A DNA stretch of 64,000 nt from Krischvirus LF73P4. The position numbers were made by a program, and so were the translations under genes. Numbering within the stretch: the stretch's first letter is position 1; every line of letters begins with the position of its first letter. The notes below the pieces were generated by a model. It made no database searches. It was given only the letters and a program-made list of their open reading frames with translations, and was not told where the DNA came from. Where the stretch lies: the sequence record OZ035795.1; one strand, written 5' to 3'. Of this stretch, positions 26,457-56,856 are shown piece after piece.

Positions 26457-26935
26457 GCTAAATCATTGCAATATTTTAGTGCCTTAGTTTGAAATTCTGC
26501 GCTGTTAAGTTCTTCATAACGGTCATAATCACCGTTTAATGCTGCCTTTCTTGCTTCTTGCTCTATCTGCATGTCAGACATGATAATACAGCGATCCCGC
26601 GCTTTCATCTTCTCAAGTTGTATAGACTCTTCTTTCTGCTTGCGCAATTCTTCTTGACGCTTCTTTTCTTCTTGTGCTTTCTCTTCCCGCGCTTCTTTGA
26701 TTGCATCCTTGAACATCTGCGTTTGTGGTGCTAAACCAACTTTAACTCGATCTACGTCTCGACGTTCCATTTTAGAAATAAAGCATGATTCGATCTGATC
26801 ATCACTTGCATATGCTGTTTTACATTCACGAAGCAAGAAAACCGGATCTGATTTAGCATTCATCATAGCTTCCATGTTGGCACAACCAGTAAGCATGAAT
26901 GCAGCCGCAAGACCAATCAGTTTAATCATTTTCAT
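26450..26935 (-). CDS. predicted lipoprotein with charged coiled-coil
   Basis: N-terminus MKMIKLIGLAAAFMLTGC carries a lipobox (LTGC). Confidence 0.55.
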   Translation of the reverse strand: MKMIKLIGLAAAFMLTGCANMEAMMNAKSDPVFLLRECKTAYASDDQIESCFISKMERRDVDRVKVGLAPQTQMFKDAIKEAREEKAQEEKKRQEELRKQKEESIQLEKMKARDRCIIMSDMQIEQEARKAALNGDYDRYEELNSAEFQTKALKYCNDLAK

Positions 26936-27756
26936 TTAGTCACCTCACCGAAAATTGTAAATTGTCTACGATTCTCATCGCCGAAAGATTCTACTACGTC
27001 GTTTACCTTGACGCAAGTCCCGCGCGGTAAAATTACTTCACATTCGCAAGGATTCCATGCAATTGACCCAACAACAAAACCTTTATGATCTTTTACGTCA
27101 ATTACCCATGATACATTACAAGAATGTTGCATCTTTCCGGTCATTGATTCATATCGATTCTCACAATAAAGGCTAGTGCTGTTTGATAGCCATCCTCCAA
27201 AGATGATCGGTGTCATGCTGGTAGATACAAAGTTTTTAAAGGTAAACTCCTTATCTTCAATGATACGCTCTATTGTCTGAATGTCAAGATGTTGACCGCG
27301 ATAAAGAGTACCGTTTAACTTTTCGGTTTTATCCATGACGCAATCCATCAAATCGACAATCTCTGATATCTCATCGGTCATGTCTTCTTCCCCTAAGAGA
27401 GCACCATTTACCCATTCGTATTGTTCAGATACATAATCACAGATTGCATTATATTCTGCTGGTGTTATGTTGTTATGTTTGTAATGTTTGAATACATTAT
27501 CTCCAAAGTCTTCGGAGTGTACTTCATACATCACATTAATGATTTTCTTGACAAATCCATAATCTTGTGTCTCACGCTCAAGGAAGCGGATAACCTTCAC
27601 ATAATCATCAAAGTTAATCTGATCGCTGATCATCTCAGTGATCATGTAACCATTAATCCCCTCAATGTCATATGTTTCAATATAATTATCCATACGTTCC
27701 ATCATTGATTCGCGTGATTCTTCCGAAAGACGAAAATCCTGTAATTTCTTGAACAT
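26932..27756 (-). CDS. ADP-ribosyltransferase, Alt/Mod family paralog
   Basis: R-S-E triad motifs LYRGQ, FVSTS, CECEVILPRG; GGGAGG RBS. Confidence 0.75.
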   Translation of the reverse strand: MFKKLQDFRLSEESRESMMERMDNYIETYDIEGINGYMITEMISDQINFDDYVKVIRFLERETQDYGFVKKIINVMYEVHSEDFGDNVFKHYKHNNITPAEYNAICDYVSEQYEWVNGALLGEEDMTDEISEIVDLMDCVMDKTEKLNGTLYRGQHLDIQTIERIIEDKEFTFKNFVSTSMTPIIFGGWLSNSTSLYCENRYESMTGKMQHSCNVSWVIDVKDHKGFVVGSIAWNPCECEVILPRGTCVKVNDVVESFGDENRRQFTIFGEVTK

Positions 27757-27834: not shown

Positions 27835-29886
27835 TTACATTTTAAATTTATCTGGCATTGCGTCTACAGATACCAGATCAGCGATAAGCTGACGTAGAGT
27901 TGCCTTATCTGCTTTCTTACGTTCGGTTTTAGCTTCGCTAATGAAGCTGGAGAAAGACAGGTCAGAAGCAGGTTTAACAACACCTTCACGGATGAATGCA
28001 TCACCGTCCGCGATCATCTCGCCAGATTCTTGTAATGCTGCCAGTTCATTTTTGTTCATAATATGTGCCTCAATGTAATAAGTTTCTTGTGAATCCGTCG
28101 ATGCCGTAGCACGAGTTACCGTATCAAAGGATAACACAACACCGCGAGGAAGTAAAATCTCGCATTCTTTGTAAGCAAATGCTTTGTTACCTACTGGCAA
28201 TACAGGGATGTTTTCCGCGCCAGCAATGGAGAAAGCAACATTAGCGCCACCTTCACCACGAGAGCCAGCCATAGAATCAACACCAGCAACGGCACTAGCC
28301 ACGTTTGCATTCCAGCCGCCAAAAATGTTAGGTGCAAGGGAAGTGCTCACATAGTTTTTAAAGTAAAACGCTTTTTGCTTACGTGCAGTTTCCCACATTT
28401 GCGACCGGAAGTCCATACCACGATACAGAATAGTACCCGGATCAAGTTTAACGCCATAGTTGGAGAAGGCATTATCCAGTGCATCGCACATCTTGACCAA
28501 TTCTTCTGGATCTGAGATGCCTTCAAACTCTTCCAGCTTACGGTCGGTTAGGAAGTTGTTCATATTGATGTATGCTGCATCGGCATATTCGCTCAACACA
28601 AAACCTTCCGCGCCTGGCAGATCAAGATCAATATCTGCCATCATTTCACCCATGTTACTAGCAATTGCTTCAAACATACCGGAAGCAACATTACGTAGGG
28701 CATCGGTTTTAATCTGGGTGATATGACTACGCAGCATTTCAGCTTTTACATCTGCTGGCATAGACTGGTCTACTCGATCCATTGCTAGGGCGGTGATCTT
28801 GTTTTCGAATACTTCCTCGCTCATGATTTCTTTTAAGCGTTTGATTGATGCTGCGATAACTTCCGCAGACAACGGATCATATTGATCCTGAACTTTTACC
28901 AGTTCGCTTACTGCGTATTTTGCATCGGCTTCGCTTTCAAAAATAGTACGCATGAAACCATAGCGAGTGATAATATCACTTGTCCAGTCATTCAGAGAAC
29001 GGGCGGTTGAACGTTCTAAGGCTTGACGATCAATCAGAGTATTAAACTGTTTCTTAGGTTCTGCTTCGGTGATATCTTCTTCCGGTTTAAGATTAATTTT
29101 TTCTGGATGATTCACATAGTCGCTGTTATAGGTCGCTTGAGTTTTCAGCATTTCTTCTTTAGTCAAACGAGATTTAGCCGCTACGCGTTGTTCTGCTTCC
29201 GCGTTTCGTTCTTCTTCTGACACAAGACTAGCCGCATACGCCTCATCTTTAGTCAGAGATTCACCAGTAGCCTTAGATACCCAGCGATCACCTAAATCAC
29301 TTTCTACTTTAGTGAACAAGGATTCATCAAGTTTAATCCCTTTAATCTTATCAATCGCCATCCCGCGACGTTTGACAACAACTAAAGCGATCTTTTTGCT
29401 GGTCATTACTTCCTGCTGGAATACTTCAAACTTCGGTGTACGACGCACCAAACGCTCTATAACGCGCTTAACCAGTTCGGTCTTACCTTTCATGCGGGAT
29501 ACGTTAAAACGGAACATAACAGCGTCTAATTGCGCTTTACGGGCTGTTTCCATAACCACATCAAAAGCACTTGCCATAACTGCAATCGGGTTATCTCCTA
29601 GACCATTTTTAAGCTGTACAATACGACCGCTTTTGTTCATTTCGCACAGTACAACATGTGCGGTCTTGTCACCCATACGAATGATTTTAGGTGTTTTGTT
29701 GGTGAAGTTACAAAGACGGACAATCACATCTTTATCGCGTGTCTGTACTGCAAAAAGCTGTTTAGGATTCTGCTTAGGCTTTAAGCACTGTACCGGAGCA
29801 ATACTGCCAAAGTTTTCTTCCTCTTCCGTCAACAGCCATTTCTCGAAAGATTCAATCATTAGATCGTCGATTTCTAAGTTAAACAT
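27835..29886 (-). CDS. alt: Alt ADP-ribosyltransferase
   Basis: 683 aa (T4 Alt 682 aa); LYRGMDF, YVSTS, ECEILLPRG; follows gene 54 as in T4. Confidence 0.85.
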   Translation of the reverse strand: MFNLEIDDLMIESFEKWLLTEEEENFGSIAPVQCLKPKQNPKQLFAVQTRDKDVIVRLCNFTNKTPKIIRMGDKTAHVVLCEMNKSGRIVQLKNGLGDNPIAVMASAFDVVMETARKAQLDAVMFRFNVSRMKGKTELVKRVIERLVRRTPKFEVFQQEVMTSKKIALVVVKRRGMAIDKIKGIKLDESLFTKVESDLGDRWVSKATGESLTKDEAYAASLVSEEERNAEAEQRVAAKSRLTKEEMLKTQATYNSDYVNHPEKINLKPEEDITEAEPKKQFNTLIDRQALERSTARSLNDWTSDIITRYGFMRTIFESEADAKYAVSELVKVQDQYDPLSAEVIAASIKRLKEIMSEEVFENKITALAMDRVDQSMPADVKAEMLRSHITQIKTDALRNVASGMFEAIASNMGEMMADIDLDLPGAEGFVLSEYADAAYINMNNFLTDRKLEEFEGISDPEELVKMCDALDNAFSNYGVKLDPGTILYRGMDFRSQMWETARKQKAFYFKNYVSTSLAPNIFGGWNANVASAVAGVDSMAGSRGEGGANVAFSIAGAENIPVLPVGNKAFAYKECEILLPRGVVLSFDTVTRATASTDSQETYYIEAHIMNKNELAALQESGEMIADGDAFIREGVVKPASDLSFSSFISEAKTERKKADKATLRQLIADLVSVDAMPDKFKM

Positions 29887-30486: not shown

Positions 30487-31005
30487 TTAGTTATTTTTTA
30501 ATTGCTCATCTTGCAATAGGGCAATCACATGCTGGCGATGTTCTTCCGATTGAGGCACACCGAAAAAGTTTGTTTTGTAGAAATACTCTAATCGGTCTTC
30601 TCGTGTGCTCTCTTCCATCATGATCGCGGGTAGTCCGAGATTTCGGAAACGTCGCTTTTCTGCTGGCGTAAAATCACTGTAATACAACATAGAATCATCA
30701 TTACCAGCAATGCTAAACTCATCCTTCATAAAGGAGAATATTGCGTTTAAACGCTGTTTACCGTCCACGATTTCGATCTCATAGCGAGAGCCATCATCAA
30801 TCTTAGCCATTGCGATAGCACCAACCGGAAAATCATTAATCAGGTTTTCGATAAACATACGTTTGTTTTCGGTGTCCCATACCAAAGGACGCTGATAATC
30901 TGGGTTCATGTTGATATAGCCATCTTCTAACCATGCTTCGTAAACAGAGATGACAAAGTTTTTAGTATTGGTATAGTAACGGCGTTTAGGCGTTAAACGG
31001 TTCAT
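30487..31005 (-). CDS. DUF262 / ParB-like nuclease-domain protein
   Basis: DYQRPLVWD and VDGKQRL motifs; start set at ATG after AGGAG, 1 nt from the upstream stop. Confidence 0.6.
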   Translation of the reverse strand: MNRLTPKRRYYTNTKNFVISVYEAWLEDGYINMNPDYQRPLVWDTENKRMFIENLINDFPVGAIAMAKIDDGSRYEIEIVDGKQRLNAIFSFMKDEFSIAGNDDSMLYYSDFTPAEKRRFRNLGLPAIMMEESTREDRLEYFYKTNFFGVPQSEEHRQHVIALLQDEQLKNN

Positions 31006-31006
31006 G

Positions 31007-31336
31007 TTATAGTCTCCTGAATGGATCATCACGTAAATCAATATCTTTTAAGAACTCATCCCATGAATGGCGGATATTGTTCTTAATTCTCCAGATAAGC
31101 GCAGGGATTGAACGCTCTCCCATCTGGAAGTATGGATCATATGATCCGTATGCCCAATATGCTACTACAATTCCACAATCAGCGCAATAGTATTCTATTT
31201 CACTTGCTGGCGACCAAAGTCCATCAATATGATCGGTGATCTTGCTTTCGATGTTATGGCTATGACAATCAGGGCAACGGATGCAATGACCTTGTTTATC
31301 GTAATTTGACGTTAGCGAATACTTAAACAATCTCAT
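31007..31336 (-). CDS. zinc-ribbon protein
   Basis: CIRCPDC..CADC cysteine pairs; overlaps neighbours in an operon. Confidence 0.5.
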   Translation of the reverse strand: MRLFKYSLTSNYDKQGHCIRCPDCHSHNIESKITDHIDGLWSPASEIEYYCADCGIVVAYWAYGSYDPYFQMGERSIPALIWRIKNNIRHSWDEFLKDIDLRDDPFRRL

Positions 31337-32052
31337 TATAGATCCTTATTGGCTTCAAATACTGCCTTTGCGAATCCTCGCGGGGTAAGTGACCTTATAG
31401 TCTTTGTTTTCGTTCCTTTCCCGCCTAGCTTAGAATGCTGTTTACTGTACCCTTTATTAATCTGCAACGGTTTCTTTTCTGGCATTATAAAGCCTTGTCC
31501 GGTCCATAAGCAAGTCTTTTTTGGGTACATATCACGGTCGGCAATATACTCAGGAAAAGTAGGATGTTTATCATCTTCCGGCAAATAACCGCCATATTCC
31601 CACGGATGGAACATATAATCAGGCTTACGCCACATGCTAGAGATAACGCTTACAGGATTCTCTATCATGTAGGGAACTCCTAGCCATTCACCCAAATAAG
31701 CGGTTATTTTAGCTGCCCGTACATCATGAACTTGAATCAATGGTCCTTGTTCTAGTTTCTTTCGTTCAAAGTGCGCAGCGCCACTAACAGCTAAATTGGT
31801 GCACGGTGGGAATGCAAAGATAATATCCGGTTTCCCCCATTCAAGGTCCATTGCTCTTTCCAGCCAATTCAAATCAATCCATGTGTTTACATAGGTAATG
31901 TTTGGATGTTCAAATCGGGTATTATACTTTTTGTATGTGCCGTGGTCGCCATCGTCAGCATTAAAGCAGATCACCTTATGACCCGCTTTAGCCCATTCTA
32001 ACCCCATTATCCCCGATCCGTCAAAGTTGCAGAATATTAATTTTTGTTTCAT
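31336..32052 (-). CDS. DNA C5-cytosine methyltransferase-like protein (short)
   Basis: Motif I-like FDGSG, catalytic-like DIIFAFPPC (compare DIL.AGFPCQ), ENP at the motif VI spacing; only 238 aa with no obvious target-recognition domain. Confidence 0.5.
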   Translation of the reverse strand: MKQKLIFCNFDGSGIMGLEWAKAGHKVICFNADDGDHGTYKKYNTRFEHPNITYVNTWIDLNWLERAMDLEWGKPDIIFAFPPCTNLAVSGAAHFERKKLEQGPLIQVHDVRAAKITAYLGEWLGVPYMIENPVSVISSMWRKPDYMFHPWEYGGYLPEDDKHPTFPEYIADRDMYPKKTCLWTGQGFIMPEKKPLQINKGYSKQHSKLGGKGTKTKTIRSLTPRGFAKAVFEANKDL

Positions 32053-32542: not shown

Positions 32543-32625
32543 TGTTTGATTCTCCTAAGTGGTATCTCGTCTTGATGGTTGTATTGTAGGGGAGTTATCC
32601 TCCCCTGTCAACACTTTTTATAAAA
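32543..32625 (-). promoter_or_regulatory. PeSL-type early promoter/stem-loop cassette
   Basis: TTGACA, spacer palindrome GGGGAGGATAACTCCCC, TACAAT; heads the DUF262/methyltransferase-like operon. Confidence 0.6.
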
Positions 32626-32793
32626 TTATTTGTTAATTTCTGGTGCGTTGCTCGGATAGTAACCTTCTTTAACACCCAGATATTTTGCAACCATCCCTAC
32701 AATCTTCTGTGCTACTACAATGTCAAATTTCAGATAATCTTCGCCGTGGGTTTCAATGATATATGCTTCACATGCTGCTTTAGTCTCGAACAT
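32626..32793 (-). CDS. small hypothetical protein (paralog of 35896..36063)
   Basis: 55 aa; 49/55 identical to the second copy. Confidence 0.5.
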   Translation of the reverse strand: MFETKAACEAYIIETHGEDYLKFDIVVAQKIVGMVAKYLGVKEGYYPSNAPEINK

Positions 32794-32869
32794 TTTGATT
32801 CTCCTATTTCGTTTCGGTATGTGTGTATTATAGGGGATCTCCCGATCCCCGTCAACAACTTTTTTAAAA
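32794..32869 (-). promoter_or_regulatory. PeSL-type early promoter/stem-loop cassette
   Basis: TTGACG, spacer palindrome GGGGATC..GATCCCC, TATAAT. Confidence 0.55.
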
Positions 32870-33151
32870 TTATTCGTGATTAGTTTCGATGTTGTGCATT
32901 TTGCACCAGTTCAGCCAATCACCCAGATCCTGATAGTTAATGCTTTTATCTGCTGCCATCGTTTTTGTCTTGATACCCATATGTGCGTTATGAGTAAGCA
33001 TTTTTACAGTGAACTCAATTTTATCGCCTTTAGCTTTAACATCAACCAGTTTGGTCCACTGGCTACCAGCGCCGCGAATGTTCATACCAACGATGTTTCC
33101 GATGTATGCTTCTTTGTTTTTCAGGATTTCGGTTGCTTTGATGAATTTCAT
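32870..33151 (-). CDS. hypothetical protein
   Basis: 93 aa; PeSL upstream. Confidence 0.5.
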   Translation of the reverse strand: MKFIKATEILKNKEAYIGNIVGMNIRGAGSQWTKLVDVKAKGDKIEFTVKMLTHNAHMGIKTKTMAADKSINYQDLGDWLNWCKMHNIETNHE

Positions 33152-33222
33152 TTTTGATTCTCCAGTTCGTTTCGGTATGGGTGTATTATGCTATGTTCTT
33201 ACTTTGGTGTCAACAACTTTTT
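33152..33222 (-). promoter_or_regulatory. PeSL-type early promoter cassette
   Basis: TTGACA-17-CATAAT; conserved leader. Confidence 0.55.
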
Positions 33223-33492
33223 TTAGATATTTTCAGAAATAAATTTTAAAACTTGACGTAAATGTTTCTCATCTTTGATAGTCGCCGGAAGTTCTTCTTT
33301 TACTTCCTGTGCAAGATAGATATTTCCGTTCCAAGTGAAAGATCCGTCTTCGTTTACGCGATAGCTGAACATCCACTCGCAATCATTTTCGATTTCATAT
33401 ACACACAGAAGGGTGTAATCGTTAAAGCTATTGATTTCAAGGTCGAAGCCGTGACGTTTTGCAAAGTTGGTAGTGGTTTTAGTCAGTGCCAT
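33223..33492 (-). CDS. hypothetical protein
   Basis: 89 aa; PeSL upstream. Confidence 0.5.
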   Translation of the reverse strand: MALTKTTTNFAKRHGFDLEINSFNDYTLLCVYEIENDCEWMFSYRVNEDGSFTWNGNIYLAQEVKEELPATIKDEKHLRQVLKFISENI

Positions 33493-33575
33493 TGTTTGAT
33501 TCTCCTAAGTGGTATCTCGTTTCGATGGGTTTATTATGCTATAGGCGTGATCTGGTGTCAACAACTTTTTTAAAA
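33493..33575 (-). promoter_or_regulatory. PeSL-type early promoter cassette
   Basis: TTGACA-17-CATAAT; near-identical to the cassette at 52582-52670. Confidence 0.55.
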
Positions 33576-33585
33576 TTTTATGCAA

Positions 33586-33611
33586 TAAAAAAGCCGACAC
33601 TAAGGTCGGCT
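33586..33611 (-). terminator. rho-independent terminator
   Basis: GCCGAC-actaag-GTCGGC with A-run on plus. Confidence 0.6.
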
Positions 33612-33618
33612 AATAAAA

Positions 33619-33927
33619 TCAACGAGATAGATAATCGTTTTGCGCGATCTGGTCGGCGTATGCTGGTGTTATGTCAATCGCCAACACTTTAACGCGTGCT
33701 TTCTTGCGACCTGGGTTTTCTCGTAACCAGTGCTCATGACCGTACACATTTTTATATTTTGATGCGGTTTCGAAGGTACGGATCGGACCAGGGTAATCAG
33801 CGTAAAGGATCTCTAGGTCTTCTGTGATGTAAAAATATACGTTGTAATTGCTGTTCTCTAGCTTAAGCAGAGACTTTCGGAACATTGGGAGATTTTCGCG
33901 GGTAAATTCAAAGATATTATCTTTCAT
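33619..33927 (-). CDS. HxHW-family small protein (paralog 1 of 6)
   Basis: GHEHW..VKVLAIDI; GAGGA RBS. Confidence 0.5.
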   Translation of the reverse strand: MKDNIFEFTRENLPMFRKSLLKLENSNYNVYFYITEDLEILYADYPGPIRTFETASKYKNVYGHEHWLRENPGRKKARVKVLAIDITPAYADQIAQNDYLSR

Positions 33928-33950
33928 AGTATTATCCTCAATAGTTGGAT

Positions 33951-33973
33951 GAAAAGGGGGGCTTAATGCCCCG
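33951..33973 (-). terminator. rho-independent terminator or attenuator
   Basis: GGGGC-ttaat-GCCCC with A-run on plus. Confidence 0.5.
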
Positions 33974-33977
33974 TATA

Positions 33978-34265
33978 TTAAAACAGTCCTTCCTGTACAC
34001 CGTAGTAGAGTTCATCGCTGATAATTTCATTAATGCGACGGTGTGCATATTCCTGATTTGCGAAGTTGTCAGCAAGTTCTACTTTAGTTTCGCCGTCATG
34101 AGTCCATTTAGTGATAACTTTACCATCTGCAAATTTGAAGTTGAACTCTTTAGCTACTGCATCGCGTACCAGACGTGCGAACTTGTTGTTACGGATTGCA
34201 TTATCGGTTTCGTGTGCAGCGTGAGCAAATTTGTTAACTTTCAGAGTGATAGTAATGTATGCCAT
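33978..34265 (-). CDS. hypothetical protein
   Basis: 95 aa; shares VR.A.AKEFN with 37297..37608. Confidence 0.5.
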   Translation of the reverse strand: MAYITITLKVNKFAHAAHETDNAIRNNKFARLVRDAVAKEFNFKFADGKVITKWTHDGETKVELADNFANQEYAHRRINEIISDELYYGVQEGLF

Positions 34266-34346
34266 AATTTGATTCTCCTAGTTAGAAAGTGTATCTCGTT
34301 TCGATGGGTGTATTATGCTATACACCCGACCTCATGTCAACACTTT
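34266..34346 (-). promoter_or_regulatory. PeSL-type early promoter/stem-loop cassette
   Basis: TTGACA-17-CATAAT; hairpin GGGTGTAT/ATACACCC. Confidence 0.6.
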
Positions 34347-34625
34347 TTATAAAATAATTTTTTGATATTTTTCTATGATGTTCGTGTAATTCACATCAAC
34401 CGCTAGCACCGTTGCTTCGAATCCACCGTTTAGCCAATGGCTATGATCGTGATCGTGAAAGAAACCTAGACCAGTACGAAGACCTTCTTTATATTCGGCG
34501 CGTACATTCAGTTTGTCGTCGATAAACAGATAAAACCATGAATTTTTACTAGGATTGATGATACAACCTTTCAGATTAGGGAGAATATCACGACTAAGAA
34601 TAAACTTATCACCTACCTTGAACAT
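34347..34625 (-). CDS. HxHW-family small protein (paralog 2)
   Basis: HSHW..TVLAVDV; start at MFKVGDKF after GAGGAC. Confidence 0.5.
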   Translation of the reverse strand: MFKVGDKFILSRDILPNLKGCIINPSKNSWFYLFIDDKLNVRAEYKEGLRTGLGFFHDHDHSHWLNGGFEATVLAVDVNYTNIIEKYQKIIL

Positions 34626-34629
34626 AATA

Positions 34630-34950
34630 TTAGTCCTCACTTATAAGGTCAAACCAATTGTTTTTCGCATAATGCTTAATGCGTGCTTGATCTGCTTCCG
34701 CTGGTGATAGATTCCATGCAACCACTACAACTTCTGACGCATCGTCATCCGTTTCTGATACCCAATGATTATGATTCATACAATTGTTTGCTATCGCGTG
34801 AGCAAATGATCTCATTACCGGAGACGTATAATCATAGTAACGGATTTTCAGATTTTCATCAACGTACAAGTAGATCGTATACGGCTTATATTCAGTAACC
34901 AGTAACAGACAGTTACGCAATTCTGGGAAAATCTTTTTAGTTAATTTCAT
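34630..34950 (-). CDS. HxHW-family small protein (paralog 3)
   Basis: NHNHW..VVVVAW; start at MKLTKK after GAGGA. Confidence 0.5.
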   Translation of the reverse strand: MKLTKKIFPELRNCLLLVTEYKPYTIYLYVDENLKIRYYDYTSPVMRSFAHAIANNCMNHNHWVSETDDDASEVVVVAWNLSPAEADQARIKHYAKNNWFDLISED

Positions 34951-34951
34951 T

Positions 34952-35161
34952 TTATAATCCTCGGTCGCGGCTATAGTACACGGTACGCCATACAATTTCA
35001 TGTTTCGTGTCGCTCCAGCACACGATCTCATTTACTCTTAAATCTTTGTTATCAACAAAAGATGAACATTGTGACGCTTCTTTCATCATTTTATCTGCTG
35101 TTTTCTCATCAAATACAGCACAGATTTCTTTATACACTCGATAATCTTTAAACTTGCTCAT
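34952..35161 (-). CDS. small protein, MSKFKDY tandem family (copy B)
   Basis: Start at MSKFKDYRVY; paralog of the adjacent gene. Confidence 0.45.
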   Translation of the reverse strand: MSKFKDYRVYKEICAVFDEKTADKMMKEASQCSSFVDNKDLRVNEIVCWSDTKHEIVWRTVYYSRDRGL

Positions 35162-35163
35162 AA

Positions 35164-35373
35164 TTAACACCAATCAAGAGTTTTTGAGAAAACCTCTATC
35201 CATTGTTGAGTATATGCGGTTTCTTTCCATGAGACAATACCGGTAGAATAATGGTTTTTGTTTCCAGAAAAGGACGGGCATTTTGATGCATCTTCCATCA
35301 TCTTTTCCGCGAACTCTGGTTCGTATACTCGCAAGATCTGTTGATATGCTTTGTAGTCTTTAAATTTGCTCAT
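35164..35373 (-). CDS. small protein, MSKFKDY tandem family (copy A)
   Basis: MSKFKDYKAY..EKMMEDASKC parallels the next gene. Confidence 0.5.
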   Translation of the reverse strand: MSKFKDYKAYQQILRVYEPEFAEKMMEDASKCPSFSGNKNHYSTGIVSWKETAYTQQWIEVFSKTLDWC

Positions 35374-35638
35374 AATCGTTAACTACCTTATCAGCTTCTT
35401 TTATTGTTTTTACATCAACTGCGATAACCCGTAAAGGTTCGTCGTGGTTCCACCAATGATCGTGAATATCAGCTTGTGATTTATCACCAAAGGAATCACG
35501 AATATCATTTTTACATTTATAGCTAATGTGACCGTCATAGTCAACATAAAGGTAATTATCGAAAATCGGCGTTTTTAAGATCATGCCGAAAAATCTTTCT
35601 TTGTGTGTCTTATCCAGTGTTGCAGTAATTCGCATCAT
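35360..35638 (-). CDS. HxHW-family small protein (paralog 4)
   Basis: HDHWW..RVIAVDV. Confidence 0.5.
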   Translation of the reverse strand: MMRITATLDKTHKERFFGMILKTPIFDNYLYVDYDGHISYKCKNDIRDSFGDKSQADIHDHWWNHDEPLRVIAVDVKTIKEADKVVNDYEQI

Positions 35639-35650
35639 AATATATTCCTC

Positions 35651-35830
35651 TTAGAAAGGGATGGTCATTTCTTGAGCTTGTACATTCTCGTTAGGATTAA
35701 ACTTCATCCAACCGATATTGTCTACCAGCATATGCACATTTTTATCATATCCTACGTGAGTAGTCAATACTAAATGTGCTTTACCTTCAACGATGATTTC
35801 CATGTACTTCTGAACTTCGATAGCTTTCAT
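35651..35830 (-). CDS. small hypothetical protein
   Basis: 59 aa, manually translated; conserved leader GGAGAATCAAA-ATG. Confidence 0.4.
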   Translation of the reverse strand: MKAIEVQKYMEIIVEGKAHLVLTTHVGYDKNVHMLVDNIGWMKFNPNENVQAQEMTIPF

Positions 35831-35895
35831 TTTTGATTCTCCGTTTGTTGTCTTGATGGGAGTATATTACTACTCCCTTTAATCATTGTCAACTA
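35831..35895 (-). promoter_or_regulatory. PeSL-type early promoter/stem-loop cassette
   Basis: TTGACA-17-TAATAT; hairpin GGGAGTA/TACTCCC. Confidence 0.55.
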
Positions 35896-36063
35896 TTATT
35901 TGTTAATTTCCGGTGCGTTGCTCGGATAGTAACCTTCTTTAACACCCAGATATTTTGCGACCATTCCGGTGATCTTCTGTGCTACTACAATGTCAAATTT
36001 CAGGTAGTCTTCACCGTGGTTTGCTACAATGTATGCTTCGCATTCTGCTTTAGTCTGGAACAT
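35896..36063 (-). CDS. small hypothetical protein (paralog of 32626..32793)
   Basis: Track ORF (84 aa) trimmed to the ATG after the conserved leader; the extension ran through the promoter cassette. Confidence 0.5.
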   Translation of the reverse strand: MFQTKAECEAYIVANHGEDYLKFDIVVAQKITGMVAKYLGVKEGYYPSNAPEINK

Positions 36064-36133
36064 TTTTGATTCTCCTATATCTCGTTGGTATGTGTGTAGT
36101 ATAGGGGATCGGTGATCCCCTGTCAACAACTTT
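36064..36133 (-). promoter_or_regulatory. PeSL-type early promoter/stem-loop cassette
   Basis: TTGACA, spacer palindrome GGGGATCACCGATCCCC, TATACT. Confidence 0.6.
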
Positions 36134-36442
36134 TTATTCTTCATCTTCATCTTTATCTTGATATGCGTACTTCATAAATTTGTCTGCTACTTTGTCCGCG
36201 TTTTCAGGTTCTACGTCTGACGCTAGGACAACAGCTAGTTCGGTTTTGTCGTTTCCATCATACCAATGATTATGAGTGTCGTTTTCTTCGATATAAAACG
36301 AATCGTTTGGAGTTGTGCGACAATATACGTCTAAATTCCCATCGATATAAAAGATCCAATCCGAATACAAAATGATTGTTTTAGCAAGATTTTTATTGTC
36401 TCTTACAAAAGGTTCCGCGACAAATAGCTTAGTTTGTTCCAT
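36134..36442 (-). CDS. HxHW-family small protein (paralog 5)
   Basis: THNHW..LAVVLASDV; start at MEQTKLF after GAGGAAA. Confidence 0.5.
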   Translation of the reverse strand: MEQTKLFVAEPFVRDNKNLAKTIILYSDWIFYIDGNLDVYCRTTPNDSFYIEENDTHNHWYDGNDKTELAVVLASDVEPENADKVADKFMKYAYQDKDEDEE

Positions 36443-36458
36443 AATATTTTCCTCAAAA

Positions 36459-36650
36459 TTATACAGCTTCGTAAACTTCCCAATGTTCAGCACCAACACG
36501 CTTAACGAAAAGGTTTTCTTTGATGTTATTCATAAACGTCTGGATGGATTTAATGCGGTTGGAAGGTTTCCAGTCTTCGTTGGCATTGCGGCGATACATA
36601 ATAATATTACCAGTTCGCTTATATTCAGCAACCATTTTAAGACCACACAT
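36459..36650 (-). CDS. hypothetical protein
   Basis: 63 aa; variant promoter cassette upstream. Confidence 0.45.
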   Translation of the reverse strand: MCGLKMVAEYKRTGNIIMYRRNANEDWKPSNRIKSIQTFMNNIKENLFVKRVGAEHWEVYEAV

Positions 36651-36730
36651 AATATTATCCTCAATTTGTGGGAGAGTATTACCCTCCCGATTATTGTTAT
36701 ACTACATTACGCAAAATGGCGTGTCAATGC
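36651..36730 (-). promoter_or_regulatory. variant promoter cassette with downstream stem-loop
   Basis: TTGACA-17-TAGTAT followed by hairpin GGGAGGGTAATACTCTCCC in the leader; -35 lies in the upstream gene's 3' end. Confidence 0.45.
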
Positions 36731-37027
36731 TTCTTTTGCTGTTCCGCTAAGATTCTCGATCTCTCCTGGCATAACATCAACCGCCAGAACTTCTACAACA
36801 TCCTCTGATCCTAACCAGTGAGTATGACCTTTGTAGAACTTGATAATCAGACTACCTTCCTCATCCCATTTAACGCTATCGCTAGCCCACCACACATCAC
36901 CGTCGATAAAGTTGATGTAAAGCACACTACGCCACATTGAATTAATTACTTTCAATACTGCGCCTTTCATATCTTCCACGGTGTGGTCTTCCATTTTGAA
37001 GACCTCGCCTACCTGAACTTTTGCCAT
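36707..37027 (-). CDS. HxHW-family small protein (paralog 6)
   Basis: GHTHW..VEVLAVDV. Confidence 0.5.
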   Translation of the reverse strand: MAKVQVGEVFKMEDHTVEDMKGAVLKVINSMWRSVLYINFIDGDVWWASDSVKWDEEGSLIIKFYKGHTHWLGSEDVVEVLAVDVMPGEIENLSGTAKEALTRHFA

Positions 37028-37044
37028 TTAGTCACCTCTCTTTA

Positions 37045-37224
37045 TTACATAACAATTACGCCAGCCGTTGAAAGTTGATGTTTCAACTGAGCATTTTCTG
37101 CTACTGTCAAATCAATGATTTCTTGTGACGCTGCAATCATATAGCCATTGGTGATATTGTTTTGCATCAGTTCAATGGTTTCTTCGTTGTAGCGGATTTT
37201 AGCGATGATTTCGTTGAAGTTCAT
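37045..37224 (-). CDS. small hypothetical protein
   Basis: 59 aa, manually translated; PeSL and conserved leader upstream. Confidence 0.4.
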   Translation of the reverse strand: MNFNEIIAKIRYNEETIELMQNNITNGYMIAASQEIIDLTVAENAQLKHQLSTAGVIVM

Positions 37225-37296
37225 AATTGATTCTCCTAGTTCGTTTCGGTATGTGTGTATTATAGGGGAGTTTAACCTCCCCTGTCAACAACTTTT
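37225..37296 (-). promoter_or_regulatory. PeSL-type early promoter/stem-loop cassette
   Basis: TTGACA, spacer palindrome GGGGAGGTTAAACTCCCC, TATAAT. Confidence 0.6.
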
Positions 37297-37608
37297 TTAA
37301 AGTTTTTCCATGATAACGGTCATAATTACATCTTCTGCGCGAGCGGTCAGATTATCAGCGTCAGCATGTGGGCGGTTGGTTGTTACAGAGATAACACCGT
37401 TGCGCACTGGTTTGATATTGATATCAAGATGATCCGCGAAACGTTCGCCAGTTACAGAATGAATTTTGGTGTTAAATTCTTTTGCCAGTGCCTTGCGAAC
37501 TTCACGAATCAGGGTAGCGTTTTTCAGTTGGTTCTCCGCGCTCATGGTCTTCTGAGTGTTCATGGTTCCGTCGAAGTCAATCATTGGCAGCGTTACGATG
37601 TATTTCAT
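37297..37608 (-). CDS. hypothetical protein
   Basis: 103 aa; PeSL upstream. Confidence 0.5.
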   Translation of the reverse strand: MKYIVTLPMIDFDGTMNTQKTMSAENQLKNATLIREVRKALAKEFNTKIHSVTGERFADHLDINIKPVRNGVISVTTNRPHADADNLTARAEDVIMTVIMEKL

Positions 37609-37688
37609 TTTTGATTCTCCTTAAGAAAGTGTGTTTCGTTTTGATGTGTGTAGTATAGGGGATCACCGATCCCCTGTCAACAACTTTT
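37609..37688 (-). promoter_or_regulatory. PeSL-type early promoter/stem-loop cassette
   Basis: TTGACA, spacer palindrome GGGGATCGGTGATCCCC, TATACT. Confidence 0.6.
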
Positions 37689-38018
37689 TTATGATTTTAG
37701 TGAATTAACCACTACATCAAAATGATGTACAGAGCACACCTTATTAAACACATATTCATCGTGTTTAGGAATAGCCCCTAATCGCTCGATTTCGCTCGCT
37801 GACACGATAAACCGTTTATCAGGTGCATTTACCTTATATGCTTCAACAACGCACGGAAAACGCGTTTTAGAGAGTTCGGGATAGTTTTCTGACTCCATCA
37901 GGACAATGAATACCCTATTACATTGATTGTAGAATCCGGTTTTTGATTTCATCAAGTTTTCTTCTCTGTGAAATTCGTGCAATCTTCCTTTCATGATTTC
38001 GTTGGTTCTTGTCTTCAC
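37689..38018 (-). CDS. hypothetical protein (start uncertain)
   Basis: Track ORF overlaps the upstream gene by about 100 nt; true start is probably an internal ATG. Confidence 0.35.
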   Translation of the reverse strand: MKTRTNEIMKGRLHEFHREENLMKSKTGFYNQCNRVFIVLMESENYPELSKTRFPCVVEAYKVNAPDKRFIVSASEIERLGAIPKHDEYVFNKVCSVHHFDVVVNSLKS

Positions 38019-38259
38019 AGTTTACCCACTCAACAAGGTCTTTGCCTAACTCGAAAGCCCATTCTCGGTCCTGCTTTACGTTTTGTAGGTATGGACTTTC
38101 CGACACTCGACGAAGTGATCTTGTCGTAACAAGAATGATCCCAGGAATGTTCGGATGTTCCTTTCCATATACAATAGGACGCGAGTCACTATCAATACCC
38201 TGTAAGAAGGTGTATCCTGAATCACTTAGGATCATATACATTTTCATTTCATCCATCAC
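37918..38259 (-). CDS. hypothetical protein
   Basis: 113 aa. Confidence 0.45.
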   Translation of the reverse strand: MMDEMKMYMILSDSGYTFLQGIDSDSRPIVYGKEHPNIPGIILVTTRSLRRVSESPYLQNVKQDREWAFELGKDLVEWVNCEDKNQRNHERKIARISQRRKLDEIKNRILQSM

Positions 38260-38516
38260 AGTTTCCTCAACCAGTTATTAAAGCGAGTAAACCATGATGC
38301 TTTTCGTGCTTCTTCTTCGGCTTTGCACGCACGCAAACCACTGAAACACCATTCATAATCATCACTGAAACATGATTCAACAGGAACACCCGCATTTCGT
38401 AGTTCTCTGGTCTTTATCATGAATCCTTGACATAAGGGGCGACCTTCAACAATGATAGGAAGTTTAACTTTTTCCATGAAAGTATACCCAGCACGGTCAA
38501 TAATTTCAATTTTCAT
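38256..38516 (-). CDS. hypothetical protein (paralog of 39762..39983)
   Basis: N-terminal pattern II..AG..FM..K.P.I.E shared with the second copy. Confidence 0.45.
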   Translation of the reverse strand: MKIEIIDRAGYTFMEKVKLPIIVEGRPLCQGFMIKTRELRNAGVPVESCFSDDYEWCFSGLRACKAEEEARKASWFTRFNNWLRKL

Positions 38517-38760
38517 TTACATTATCTCCATAGATCTTTCCATCAATATCAATTTCACCAGCGCGAACATCTAGGATAAGATGTGGTAGGTGTATGCAGT
38601 TTTCCCACCCTACGCGCTTCATTTCTTCTACGGTAACGTAAGCCCACCCGTTCGCTGTAATAAAGTCTACTTCAACCTTGAGAGGAAAGCAAGACTTTTC
38701 TATGTCTTCGAATCCGACAATATGTTTTGTTGTTGAATATGGAATATATCCGGTGATCAT
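38506..38760 (-). CDS. hypothetical protein
   Basis: 84 aa; overlapping operon. Confidence 0.45.
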   Translation of the reverse strand: MITGYIPYSTTKHIVGFEDIEKSCFPLKVEVDFITANGWAYVTVEEMKRVGWENCIHLPHLILDVRAGEIDIDGKIYGDNVNEN

Positions 38761-39218
38761 TTTGTGATCTCCTTATACTCAACACACCATAAGCGGGTAG
38801 CCCATGATAAACGCTCATAACGCTGGCAGAAATCGGACCATAGATATTGTGTACCGTCTTGCATGGTTGAAATATGCGTTTTCTCTCCAACTTTCACGAA
38901 AGAAGTATTCGATTTTGTGATCTCGACCGGAGTATATCCGAAAGCGGGTTCCAACTCAACATCTGAACTAAATGCCAATTTAACAGAATTTGTTTTTCTG
39001 ACCGCTGTCCGGTTTCCTTCTGGGTACAGCACAGCAGGTTTAGCGCCTAAGCGGATAAACTCAGTATTTTTAATGAACAGAATATCATGATAACCGTCAT
39101 ATTCCGACACTTCCATAGTAACAGGAAAATCGACATGTGCTAAACCTGGTAGATCTCGCATATCATGAAATGTAGCCATAATCTTTTTCATTCTATATTC
39201 CTCACTCTTCTGTTTCAT
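38757..39218 (-). CDS. hypothetical protein
   Basis: 153 aa. Confidence 0.45.
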   Translation of the reverse strand: MKQKSEEYRMKKIMATFHDMRDLPGLAHVDFPVTMEVSEYDGYHDILFIKNTEFIRLGAKPAVLYPEGNRTAVRKTNSVKLAFSSDVELEPAFGYTPVEITKSNTSFVKVGEKTHISTMQDGTQYLWSDFCQRYERLSWATRLWCVEYKEITK

Positions 39219-39438
39219 TTCTTTTATATGGTACTATAACAGGATTAATACAGCAAGCACCAATTACGTTATGAGCACCACAATTTAAGCATTTATAATC
39301 ATGGAACTTATTAAGGAATCGCCCGAACTCATAACCGACTAACGCCGCGTGTACTTGAGTCTCGATCTCATCCATATCAGCCAATGTTTTAACCTTCATA
39401 ATATAATCCTCAAATACTGGTTTTGCGAAGATGGTCAT
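39202..39438 (-). CDS. Cys-rich small protein
   Basis: CLNCGAH..GACC. Confidence 0.4.
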   Translation of the reverse strand: MTIFAKPVFEDYIMKVKTLADMDEIETQVHAALVGYEFGRFLNKFHDYKCLNCGAHNVIGACCINPVIVPYKRNETEE

Positions 39439-39700
39439 TACATGCTTTTAATGCATCAGTCGAGGTGTCATAGCGAGTATTATCATAGCACCAATAACCA
39501 TCTGTCAACTGATAAATTAATCCATCCTTTTTAGCGTCGATGAAAGACAATTCTTTGAAAGTTTCTACTTTCTTTGCTGATACTCCACGGTCACGGCGTT
39601 TATAGAGTTTAGCTAAAATGCGTTCAGCTTGTTCCTCTTTATCGCCAGACAGATCCCAGATGATGTTTCTGATATGCTTGATTAATTGTTCAGTGGTCAT
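39410..39700 (-). CDS. hypothetical protein
   Basis: 96 aa; PeSL upstream. Confidence 0.45.
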   Translation of the reverse strand: MTTEQLIKHIRNIIWDLSGDKEEQAERILAKLYKRRDRGVSAKKVETFKELSFIDAKKDGLIYQLTDGYWCYDNTRYDTSTDALKACNDHLRKTSI

Positions 39701-39761
39701 ATTTGATTCTCCTTAGTTGGTATGGTTATCATTATACGGGGATTTCTCCCCGTGTCAACAA
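39701..39761 (-). promoter_or_regulatory. PeSL-type early promoter/stem-loop cassette
   Basis: TTGACA, spacer palindrome GGGGAGAAATCCCC, TATAAT. Confidence 0.55.
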
Positions 39762-39983
39762 TTAAATGATCTCTGCTTCACCGTTAAGGAAGAAAGACCA
39801 TGTTTTGTTAGGATAACGAAGCGCCCACGATTCAGCAGTTTTAACACCAGCTTCGAACAATTGACGGCTGGTTACTTTAGCCATACCATCTTCGATGGCA
39901 ACGTTTTCAATAATCATCGGGTACTTAGCGCCACGCATGAAACCGAAGCCAGCGGAAGATTTGATAATTTTAACAGTTGCCAT
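39762..39983 (-). CDS. hypothetical protein (paralog of 38256..38516)
   Basis: Trimmed to MATVKII after the conserved leader. Confidence 0.45.
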   Translation of the reverse strand: MATVKIIKSSAGFGFMRGAKYPMIIENVAIEDGMAKVTSRQLFEAGVKTAESWALRYPNKTWSFFLNGEAEII

Positions 39984-40070
39984 TTTTGATTCTCCTAGAA
40001 AGTGTCGTGTTTCGATGGGTGTATTATGCAATAACACCGGATCGCTGTCAACACTTTCTAAGAAAAATTT
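39984..40070 (-). promoter_or_regulatory. PeSL-type early promoter cassette
   Basis: TTGACA-17-CATAAT; conserved leader. Confidence 0.55.
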
Positions 40071-40355
40071 TTAAACTAATCGAATATAGCCCAGAATTTC
40101 AGCACCTTTAGCCAGTCCTAAAACTTCCCATTCAAGGTCGCCGTAGTCATAATTTGCAACCATCAACTGACCATTTTTCATGCAGCAATCATGAGAGAAA
40201 ATTTGCCCCGCATAAACTACGATAGTAATAAACTTTCCTGATTCTGGCGGTGTGGAAGACAAAGCGACCATATGACCATTCAGCTTAGTAACCAGTGATG
40301 GAACAATAAAATTCGGGCTTACCTTAATACCGTTAAATTCGTTTGTGTCTTTCAT
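40071..40355 (-). CDS. hypothetical protein
   Basis: 94 aa. Confidence 0.45.
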   Translation of the reverse strand: MKDTNEFNGIKVSPNFIVPSLVTKLNGHMVALSSTPPESGKFITIVVYAGQIFSHDCCMKNGQLMVANYDYGDLEWEVLGLAKGAEILGYIRLV

Positions 40356-40702
40356 GCCAGACCTCGCAAAACACTAATAGCATAATCATGCTGGTTATTC
40401 ATAATATCAATTGCATTGTGATAACGAGCTAAACCATCAAGGATAAATTCTTGTTTATCCTGTTTCAGTTTGGTATCACGCGCAGCCATAAGAGCATCAA
40501 GAACAGGTCCAAAGTGATTATCTAATTCATCTTCGGTTGCAATGTTTCCTATTGCCTCGTCGATCCGTGATTCTAATGCTTGCTTTTCGTTGATCACTTG
40601 CTGGGTATATTCCAACACATCAAGAATATCGCGGGTAACGTCGCCATGATAAGGTATTCCCGCATGAAGATGATCAATTAATCGCTGAATATCAATGTTC
40701 AT
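40352..40702 (-). CDS. hypothetical protein
   Basis: 116 aa. Confidence 0.45.
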   Translation of the reverse strand: MNIDIQRLIDHLHAGIPYHGDVTRDILDVLEYTQQVINEKQALESRIDEAIGNIATEDELDNHFGPVLDALMAARDTKLKQDKQEFILDGLARYHNAIDIMNNQHDYAISVLRGLA

Positions 40703-41037
40703 TTGTAACCCTCCTCTGAAAGCACATCCCAGATCGTTGAGTCAAGGTGCATTAAATTCCACATAATAGAGTCATAACTACCGAAGCCAGAAGTAAAAAT
40801 TACATCACACTGGCGATAGGTCTTATGAAAATCGGTGGCTGTCTCTGCATCAATCGGCATATCGTCACCTGAAAGCACCAGACATTTAAGAATCATAACT
40901 CTGTTAGCCGTTGGCGCTTGCTTAGTCTTTTCAGCATATTTTTCGATGATCCGTTTTGCCTTTTCTTCTTTGATACGTCCAGACCAAATCCGGTTTCGGT
41001 ATTGATTCATAATAATTTCAATCACATCATTTTGCAT
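40699..41037 (-). CDS. hypothetical protein
   Basis: 112 aa. Confidence 0.45.
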   Translation of the reverse strand: MQNDVIEIIMNQYRNRIWSGRIKEEKAKRIIEKYAEKTKQAPTANRVMILKCLVLSGDDMPIDAETATDFHKTYRQCDVIFTSGFGSYDSIMWNLMHLDSTIWDVLSEEGYK

Positions 41038-41236
41038 TCTTCACGGTCTCCATAATTGTTTTGTAAGCCAGCTTAAGATGATCACCGAAAAACTTTGCAG
41101 TGTTACCCTTCGGATCGCGAAGCATGGTTTCTACGATCTCATCGGCAGTAACAATTTCTCCTTTCTTTGCTGCATGTTCTACCATATACTTCAAAGTTTC
41201 TTCGGAGGCAAGTGCTGCGGCTACTGGATTAATCAT
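41027..41236 (-). CDS. hypothetical protein
   Basis: 69 aa; PeSL upstream. Confidence 0.45.
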   Translation of the reverse strand: MINPVAAALASEETLKYMVEHAAKKGEIVTADEIVETMLRDPKGNTAKFFGDHLKLAYKTIMETVKNAK

Positions 41237-41300
41237 TTTGGTTCTCCTTTGTTGTCGATGTGTGCATTATGCTATACCCTATTCCGGTTGTCAACACCTA
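41237..41300 (-). promoter_or_regulatory. PeSL-type early promoter cassette
   Basis: TTGACA-17-CATAAT; leader GGAGAACCAAA-ATG. Confidence 0.55.
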
Positions 41301-41304
41301 AAAA

Positions 41305-41336
41305 CGAAAAAGCCACCCTTTCGGATGGCTTTTTGA
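41305..41336 (-). terminator. bidirectional-looking terminator
   Basis: AGCCACCC-tttc-GGATGGCT flanked by A-run and T-run. Confidence 0.6.
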
Positions 41337-56792: not shown

Positions 56793-56850
56793 CGAAACAA
56801 ATTTTCTATTATTCTAAAGATCTTTCTTCGTTTTGGTTATGTTTTAACCA
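56793..56850. repeat. intergenic repeat, copy C
   Basis: ccgaaacaaattttctattattctaaagatctttcttcgttttggttat; lies between the gene 35 terminator and gene 3. Confidence 0.6.
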
Positions 56851-56856
56851 ACTGTA

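Follow-up and report, generated by a model that had tools for sequence, protein, structure and literature searches.

The window analysed here, a stretch of 64,000 nucleotides (nt) from Krischvirus LF73P4 (OZ035795.1), carries six small genes on its minus strand, referred to below as paralogs A to F (Table 1), which lie downstream of alt in a hyperplastic region that extends, in the reference genomes, from alt to the DNA ligase gene. In phage RB49 the six orthologues are found in a block of small leftward genes between alt, which encodes the RNA polymerase ADP-ribosylase, and gene 30, and all of them are annotated as "hypothetical protein". The alt-to-ligase segment is one of the hyperplastic regions described for RB49 and phi1 (PMC2839356). 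A preliminary description of the window had proposed that these open reading frames (ORFs) constitute a family; all six are present where it had placed them, and their start codons match the annotations of RB49 and E26.

Multiple alignment of the six sequences reveals one paralogous family with collinear motifs. The invariant columns are H-x-H-W and the V-x-A of a VLAVDV-like strand that follows it, and the Y.Y.D..L region singled out earlier is conserved as the consensus Y-L-Y-I-D-x-x-L-x-V. The distance between the Trp residue and the strand had been given as 8-12 residues, of which the lower end holds, and the upper end has to be extended to 13. Similarly, the H-x-H-W motif is complete in all six members from the window but not in the family at large, as some natural alleles of paralog E have another residue at the position of the first His and read S-N-H-W (e.g. 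in the type phage RB49) or, in one relative, D-N-H-W. H-W alone is strictly invariant, and across the six orthogroups the invariant positions are limited to [H]-x-H-W and the V-x-A of the next strand. Profiles built from five members recover the sixth among the 438 ORFs of the window with E-values of 1.5e-14 (A), 3.9e-9 (B), 6.2e-10 (C), 2.8e-8 (D), 1.5e-8 (E) and 9.1e-7 (F), the top unrelated ORF having an E-value of at least 0.09. Pairwise phmmer comparisons link five of the six members directly, with C as the nearest paralog of A (2e-13), and E is linked only through the profile. In the six-frame translation of the 64 kb the pattern H.HW occurs just in these six ORFs and in one instance that contains a stop, and no seventh copy is detectable in the window with hidden Markov models (HMMs). 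The six ORFs are genuine genes of one family, encoding soluble proteins of ~92-106 residues.

Table 1. Paralogs A-F, their operons and control elements, companion genes and spurious ORFs (positions in the window)
Feature	Position	Strand	Length	Remarks
Paralog A	33619..33927	-	102 aa	RB49 ORF197c orthologue; H-E-H-W codons 33727-33738
Paralog B	34347..34625	-	92 aa	RB49 ORF199c orthologue; H-S-H-W codons 34434-34445
Paralog C	34630..34950	-	106 aa	RB49 ORF200c orthologue; H-N-H-W codons 34762-34773
Paralog D	35360..35638	-	92 aa	RB49 ORF203c orthologue; H-D-H-W codons 35453-35464
Paralog E	36134..36442	-	102 aa	RB49 ORF206c orthologue; H-N-H-W codons 36263-36274
Paralog F	36707..37027	-	106 aa	RB49 ORF208c orthologue; H-T-H-W codons 36815-36826
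PeSL	37251..37303	-		TTGACA, G/C stem-loop, TATAAT; 12/12 promoter match 37288-37259
Operon	37224-36134	-		59-aa gene, F, 63-aa gene, E; headed by PeSL 37251..37303
PeSL	36090..36142	-		directly after E; equivalent of RB49/phi1 PeSL206/205; 11/12 promoter match 36126-36098
Operon	36063-34347	-		55-aa gene, 59-aa gene, D, two phrog_8471 genes, C, B; headed by PeSL 36090..36142
PeSL	34304..34356	-		11/12 promoter match 34340-34312
Operon	34265-33619	-		phrog_7474 gene, stem-loop, A; headed by PeSL 34304..34356
G/C stem-loop GGGGCATTAAGCCCC	33958..33972	-		between phrog_7474 gene and A; annotated terminator in G2494
Intrinsic terminator	33592..33611	-		after A; annotated in G2494 and G2248
phrog_8471 gene	35164-35373	-	69 aa	overlaps D upstream
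phrog_8471 gene	34952-35173	-	73 aa	abuts C downstream
phrog_7474 gene	33978..34265	-		upstream of A
phrog_7474 paralog	37297-37608			upstream of F-E operon
Artefact ORFs (examples)	33262-33573, 33945-34352, 39977-40111, 41100-41336, 54547-54690	+		reverse-complement reading of PeSL cassettes

The family is confined to Krischvirus, i.e. the RB49-like T4-type coliphages, and a few uncultured relatives. A megablast search with positions 33000-37500 retrieved 58 phage records with 90-96% identity, named as Escherichia, Enterobacteria or Shigella phages or as Krischvirus RB49, with the exception of one "Phage ELT4", and all the records that we opened (RB49, phi1, JSE, E26 and others) are classified as Krischvirus, Straboviridae. 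A word-indexed profile search of 5.8 billion proteins yielded 87 clusters, among which the named ones are nearly all from Krischvirus and the rest bear the label of uncultured Caudoviricetes or, on contigs the size of a phage, of E. coli. Only 23 matches resulted when 1.84 billion representatives were searched exhaustively with HMMER, and four of them (P0098 and P0101-P0103, 807-1217 aa) are spurious repeat proteins with a "YVD..GN.FVAD"-like repeat and without H-x-H-W. Likewise, tblastn with two distant members against 50,697 phage records found 55-56 records, with phage names like those of the megablast set, a metagenome scan for related loci added further Krischvirus contigs only, and the viral contigs scanned with P0090 and P0095 gave no match. 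Every family protein collected could be assigned to one of the six orthogroups A-F.

Copy number and order are conserved as well. In ten sequenced Krischvirus genomes and four metagenome contigs, six HMM-detectable copies are present at each of the 14 loci, and the transcription order F-E-D-C-B-A is found in 13 of them; JSE differs in that it has no B, and the places of C and B are taken by two C-like genes that share 46% and 53% identity with C. On short metagenome contigs of other lineages we found genes whose products match one paralog at 37-57% identity and none of the others above ~32%, and in contig L003 the order is partly conserved (n209-like, F-like, n204-like, B/E-like, D-like, C-like). 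Such single-paralog orthologues in distant uncultured relatives indicate that the paralogs are old and that the duplications predate Krischvirus, and the local expansion with divergence that the preliminary description had envisaged is not what the comparison bears out. In JSE, G2494 and G2248 we also found an 88-aa gene adjoining F (L009 2854-3120, L006 8619-8885 and L008 5957-6223), whose product resembles the family in Foldseek (E 9e-3, probability 1.00) and in a collinear hhalign match (P 0.003), and in which the motif is reduced to G-N-G-H-L; it is probably a seventh, degenerate member, located outside the window.

The orthologues also fail to exhibit the diversifying selection once suggested for them. 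Within Krischvirus they are under purifying selection, the pooled ratio of nonsynonymous to synonymous polymorphism (pN/pS) being 0.09 for B, 0.11 for D, 0.22 for C, 0.23 for F, 0.32 for E and 0.34 for A, in the same range as that of the neighbouring genes from outside the family (0.00-0.50). Orthologues of B are 97-100% identical in 9 genomes, and those of D 93-100%, with one metagenome contig carrying a divergent D allele (57% identity). The most variable paralogs are A and E: E has three allele classes that are 60-81% identical, with synonymous divergence (dS) of up to 1.6, far above that of the flanking genes. In JSE the E gene is split, and frameshifts are present in the A genes of both JSE and kvi. 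Paralog F has a 6-residue indel polymorphism in the loop preceding the motif. Each paralog has been retained, and the pattern is the signature of sub-functionalisation under purifying selection, with replacement of cassettes or alleles at A, E and sometimes D, and not of recent diversifying expansion.

Analysis of the intergenic segments reveals eight copies of a 53-65-nt repeat between 32000 and 38000, which comprises an AT-rich tract followed by TTGACA, a G/C stem-loop and a TATAAT-like box, and which is the PeSL cassette (a sigma-70 promoter with a stem-loop) of Arbiol et al. 2010. Three copies, each with a strong sigma-70 early promoter, head the operons that carry A-F. In the middle operon, the stops and starts of the genes from D through B overlap or abut (e.g. 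B starts 4 nt past the stop of C), a tight packing that suggests coupled translation. No separate promoter precedes paralog A, which would therefore be expressed only if transcription continues through the stem-loop that lies between the phrog_7474 gene and A. The function of PeSLs has been demonstrated in RB49 and phi1, where a lacZ fusion of PeSL206/205 gave ~13,000 Miller units and the stem-loop of PeSL211/210 terminates as well as rrnB T1 (PMC2839356), and the PeSLs of the window are known from sequence. Early expression of the six genes is thus well grounded but inferred for this genome, and the location of the genes behind sigma-70 early promoters makes it consistent with a role in host takeover or counter-defence. 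The PeSLs also gave rise to artefacts, as the apparent "families" of plus-strand ORFs (FRWVYYAI...CQHFL) are reverse-complement readings of the repeated cassettes.

Two kinds of small companion genes accompany the family. The two phrog_8471 genes between D and C (E 4e-36 and 2e-34 to that family) are tandem paralogs, paired by phmmer. In a relative known from a metagenome contig, a 260-aa ORF (L015:318-1100) comprises two phrog_8471-like repeats (BLASTP 6e-11 and 4e-10) followed by a C-like domain, and the Krischvirus counterparts of its parts are consecutive genes (35373-34630). A 203-aa ORF in contig L003 (P0090) joins a B-like and an E-like domain. By "Rosetta-stone" reasoning these fusions, each known from one short contig only, suggest that the proteins act together. 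The second kind is represented by a pair of genes that both match phrog_7474 at ~1e-43 and are 34% identical in a MAFFT alignment, a similarity missed by BLASTP; a homologue search yielded three clusters, from Krischvirus only and without annotation, and one copy has a sub-threshold Pfam match to Tox-ART-HYD1 (E 0.062). In addition, a 172-nt direct repeat (32625-32796 and 35895-36066, 89% identical, spacing 3.27 kb) brackets paralogs A-D. Each copy encodes a 55-aa protein of phrog_8009, and the two proteins, which correspond to RB49 ORF191c and ORF205c, are likewise 89% identical. The succession of phrog_7474, an H-W family member and phrog_8009 is found two times, a hint of segmental duplication in the distant past, and the repeat copies would serve as a substrate for deletion or mini-circle formation.

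The preliminary description had not recognised the family, and indeed no functionally characterised family matches it, yet it is already clustered in PHROGs v4 without a function. Five of the six members match phrog_9345 ("unknown function") with a best E-value of 1.4e-51 (paralog A with 1.3e-47 over residues 1-101 of 102), and at least five of the six also match the narrower phrog_17255, phrog_16486, phrog_15972 and phrog_15965 (E 1e-58 to 1e-71), all likewise "unknown function". Scans of all six proteins against Pfam and NCBIfam gave only noise-level matches, such as PROCT (0.0016), ISL3 transposase (0.012) and Cupin_2 (0.19), each for one member only. None of the PADLOC-DB HMMs for components of anti-phage defence matched any of the six, the family profiles found nothing below E 0.1 among the PDB sequences, and a literature search with gene names, PHROG identifiers and Krischvirus anti-defence work retrieved nothing that names these genes.

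AlphaFold2 models were obtained for paralog A (predicted local distance difference test score, pLDDT, 79.9) and, from a 43-sequence alignment, for paralog D (pLDDT 89.1, predicted template modelling score, pTM, 0.83). The two agree in topology, a beta-alpha-beta-beta-beta unit being followed by a long loop, then by a short helix with H-x-H-W, a beta strand and a C-terminal helix. Each family protein is predicted to be one compact alpha/beta domain of this kind, with VLAVDV as the beta strand after the motif. A Foldseek search of BFVD gave significant scores for Krischvirus paralogs only. Neither of two folds that contain conserved His residues was found. A cupin has the motif G-x5-H-x-H-x3,4-E-x6-G inside a double-stranded beta-helix, and here the 5-6 predicted short strands with three helices do not form a jelly-roll, Cupin_2 being matched by just the one member. 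An HNH endonuclease, which the literal tripeptide H-N-H might bring to mind, has a beta-beta-alpha-metal fold with H, N and H spread over ~20-30 residues, and here the middle residue of the motif varies (E, S, N, D, T) and no HNH family of Pfam or NCBIfam is matched. Two remote resemblances involve small inhibitors. The first is to the DUF2829 proteins Tad2 (an anti-Thoeris sponge) and AcrIIA7 (an anti-CRISPR), likewise small phage proteins, on which model 1 superposes over ~55 residues at 2.1-2.3 A; membership in DUF2829 can be rejected, given neither a Pfam match nor a significant structural one. The second, and the best PDB analogue of both models, is Tis1 (PA14_01140, PDB 6OX6 chain B), the immunity protein of the type VI effector Tas1, which is covered to ~80% at 2.7-2.8 A with an insignificant score. 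Tis1 is a small single-domain protein that acts by stoichiometric binding (PMC11782079).

We hold the descriptive part of our results, that of a real, old and narrowly distributed family in early operons, whose small fold is confidently predicted and has no assignment, with high confidence. As to function, the six proteins would be expressed in the first minutes of infection, and the likeliest view is that they form a sub-functionalised set of accessory proteins, which have no enzymatic activity and work by binding. They would probably assemble with each other and with the co-transcribed phrog_8471 proteins, and the targets of such complexes, in host takeover or counter-defence, would belong to the host or to the phage. 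The H-W core may be a structural or ligand-contact element of the common scaffold, with specificity set by the variable loops and by surface charge, as the isoelectric points (pI) of the six range from 4.3 to 7.9. Tandem or segmental duplications of ancient date would have produced the set, in a part of the genome whose cassettes are shuffled by recombination between PeSLs, and purifying selection would now preserve it while alleles are replaced at A and E. Taken as a whole this is our best explanation, which we rate at somewhat less than an even chance, and the mechanism of a binding set, possible as it is, is one that we lean against when it is taken on its own. An unlikely extension is that the six paralogs and phrog_8471, perhaps with phrog_7474, are subunits of one modular early complex, in which interchangeable H-W-core domains dock different targets; if true, the complex would be a previously undescribed phage machine for host takeover or toxin neutralisation.

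Four other explanations can be considered. The family may consist of small ligand or metal binders, in which H-x-H-W, possibly paired across a dimer interface, binds a metal or a small molecule, and the paralogs would cover different ligands, either as sponges of the signalling nucleotides of host immunity, in the manner of Tad1, Tad2 and Acb2, or as tiny metalloenzymes. The preliminary description had suggested such a site, made up of the conserved His, Trp and Asp, and the family alignment weakens it: the six orthogroups have no third or fourth ligand in common (neither a Cys nor an acidic ligand is conserved), the E alleles mentioned above lack the first His, and in the strand the Asp gives way to Asn in C and to Gly in the RB49-type E. 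We regard this reading as unlikely. Alternatively, the proteins may be immunity-like inhibitors, whose Tis1-like domains block toxSAS or abortive-infection toxins of the host or temper the adjoining Alt-type ADP-ribosyltransferases of the phage itself, and the tandem array would then resemble the arrays of orphan immunity genes in polymorphic toxin loci. A Pfam scan of ten neighbouring genes revealed no toxSAS. We consider this reading quite doubtful. That the proteins are small beta-barrels (KOW-, Sm- or SH3-like) which bind nucleic acids and regulate early mRNA, translation or DNA is improbable, because four of the six are acidic (pI 4.3-5.6; the net charge of E is -14), the alignment has no conserved basic patch, and the structural scores are all insignificant. 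Functionless or nearly neutral ORFan filler, carried along by the dynamics of PeSL cassettes, would agree with the frameshifts in A (JSE, kvi), the split E and the missing B of JSE, and with the general non-essentiality of ORFans in hyperplastic regions (PMC2839356), but it is the rival least compatible with the selection data (pN/pS 0.09-0.34), is further contradicted by the six copies kept at 14 of 14 loci, the distant orthologues at 37-57% identity with an intact motif and the confident predicted folds, and seems to us very improbable.

Several features of the surrounding DNA deserve mention. At 37605-37698, around a PeSL at 37644-37696, the window has a genome junction that is absent from all 58 matching Krischvirus records: the sequence up to 37698 matches the alt-ligase hyperplastic region, and from 37605 it matches the tk / regB / nrdC block, which is located ~84-86 kb away on the same strand, the overlap of the two matches (~94 bp) being the PeSL repeat. 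Past 37608 one would expect ORF211 and the genes for HNH and ligase, all of which are missing at this place. Either recombination between PeSLs, a process put forward by Arbiol et al. 2010, produced the junction, or the assembly is chimeric. A second breakpoint relative to all reference genomes is found at 56743-56851, and 56743-64000 matches the gp34 / rnh / dsbA / gp33 block in inverted orientation, which places the long tail fibre gene (58072-61812) on the strand opposite to the other late genes of the window. Two more pairs of paralogs among small minus-strand genes are located in the adjoining hyperplastic block (38256-38516 / 39762-40037 and 39410-39700 / 40699-41037); of a wider family suspected by eye around 37689-40037, only the former pair was confirmed, 37918-38259 reaching E 0.005. 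Upstream of the array lie alt and a paralog of the C-terminal part of Alt (26932-27756 and 27835-29886), a putative ParB/DUF262-like ORF of 184 aa recognised by eye (30487-31041, DGKQRL) and a Dcm-like cytosine-C5 methyltransferase (31336-32052). In Krischvirus SAP glucosylated hydroxymethyl-cytosine has been reported, in a paper of 2026, without known pathway genes (PMC13390438), and we looked for a link between this modification and the H-W family and found none. Among the variants tabulated for SAP/TB34 is a frameshift in a 279-nt coding sequence at about the inferred position of B; as the table has dozens of single-base indels, and some affect essential genes, we read it as sequencing noise (PMC13390438).

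Among the closest known counterparts are the PeSL-flanked ORFan cassettes of the T4-type hyperplastic regions (PMC2839356, PMC1524935), which have in common with the family the genome region in RB49 and phi1, the arrangement of PeSLs, transcription early in infection and variation in the manner of cassettes. Arbiol et al. 2010 (PMC2839356) and Nolan et al. 2006 (PMC1524935) treated such ORFans as unrelated orphans that come and go, whereas the six genes described here are homologues of long standing that keep their number and order and evolve under purifying selection. The comparison of RB49 and phi1 does not describe them as paralogs, and PHROGs gives them no function. On the whole, this is a sound and fairly ordinary family of phage orphan genes, already catalogued and now better characterised, with a plausible early accessory role, and the finding adds neither a new principle nor a function. 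Early orphan genes make up much of the genome of T4-type phages, and phages of the RB49 type serve in phage therapy as well as in panels for defence systems. Six "unrelated" orphans of one hyperplastic region turn out to be a single old family of fixed copy number, whose partner genes are fused in relatives, so that about a dozen anonymous ORFs become one testable module, and the case corrects the common assumption that a tandem array of paralogs in a phage reflects an ongoing arms race.

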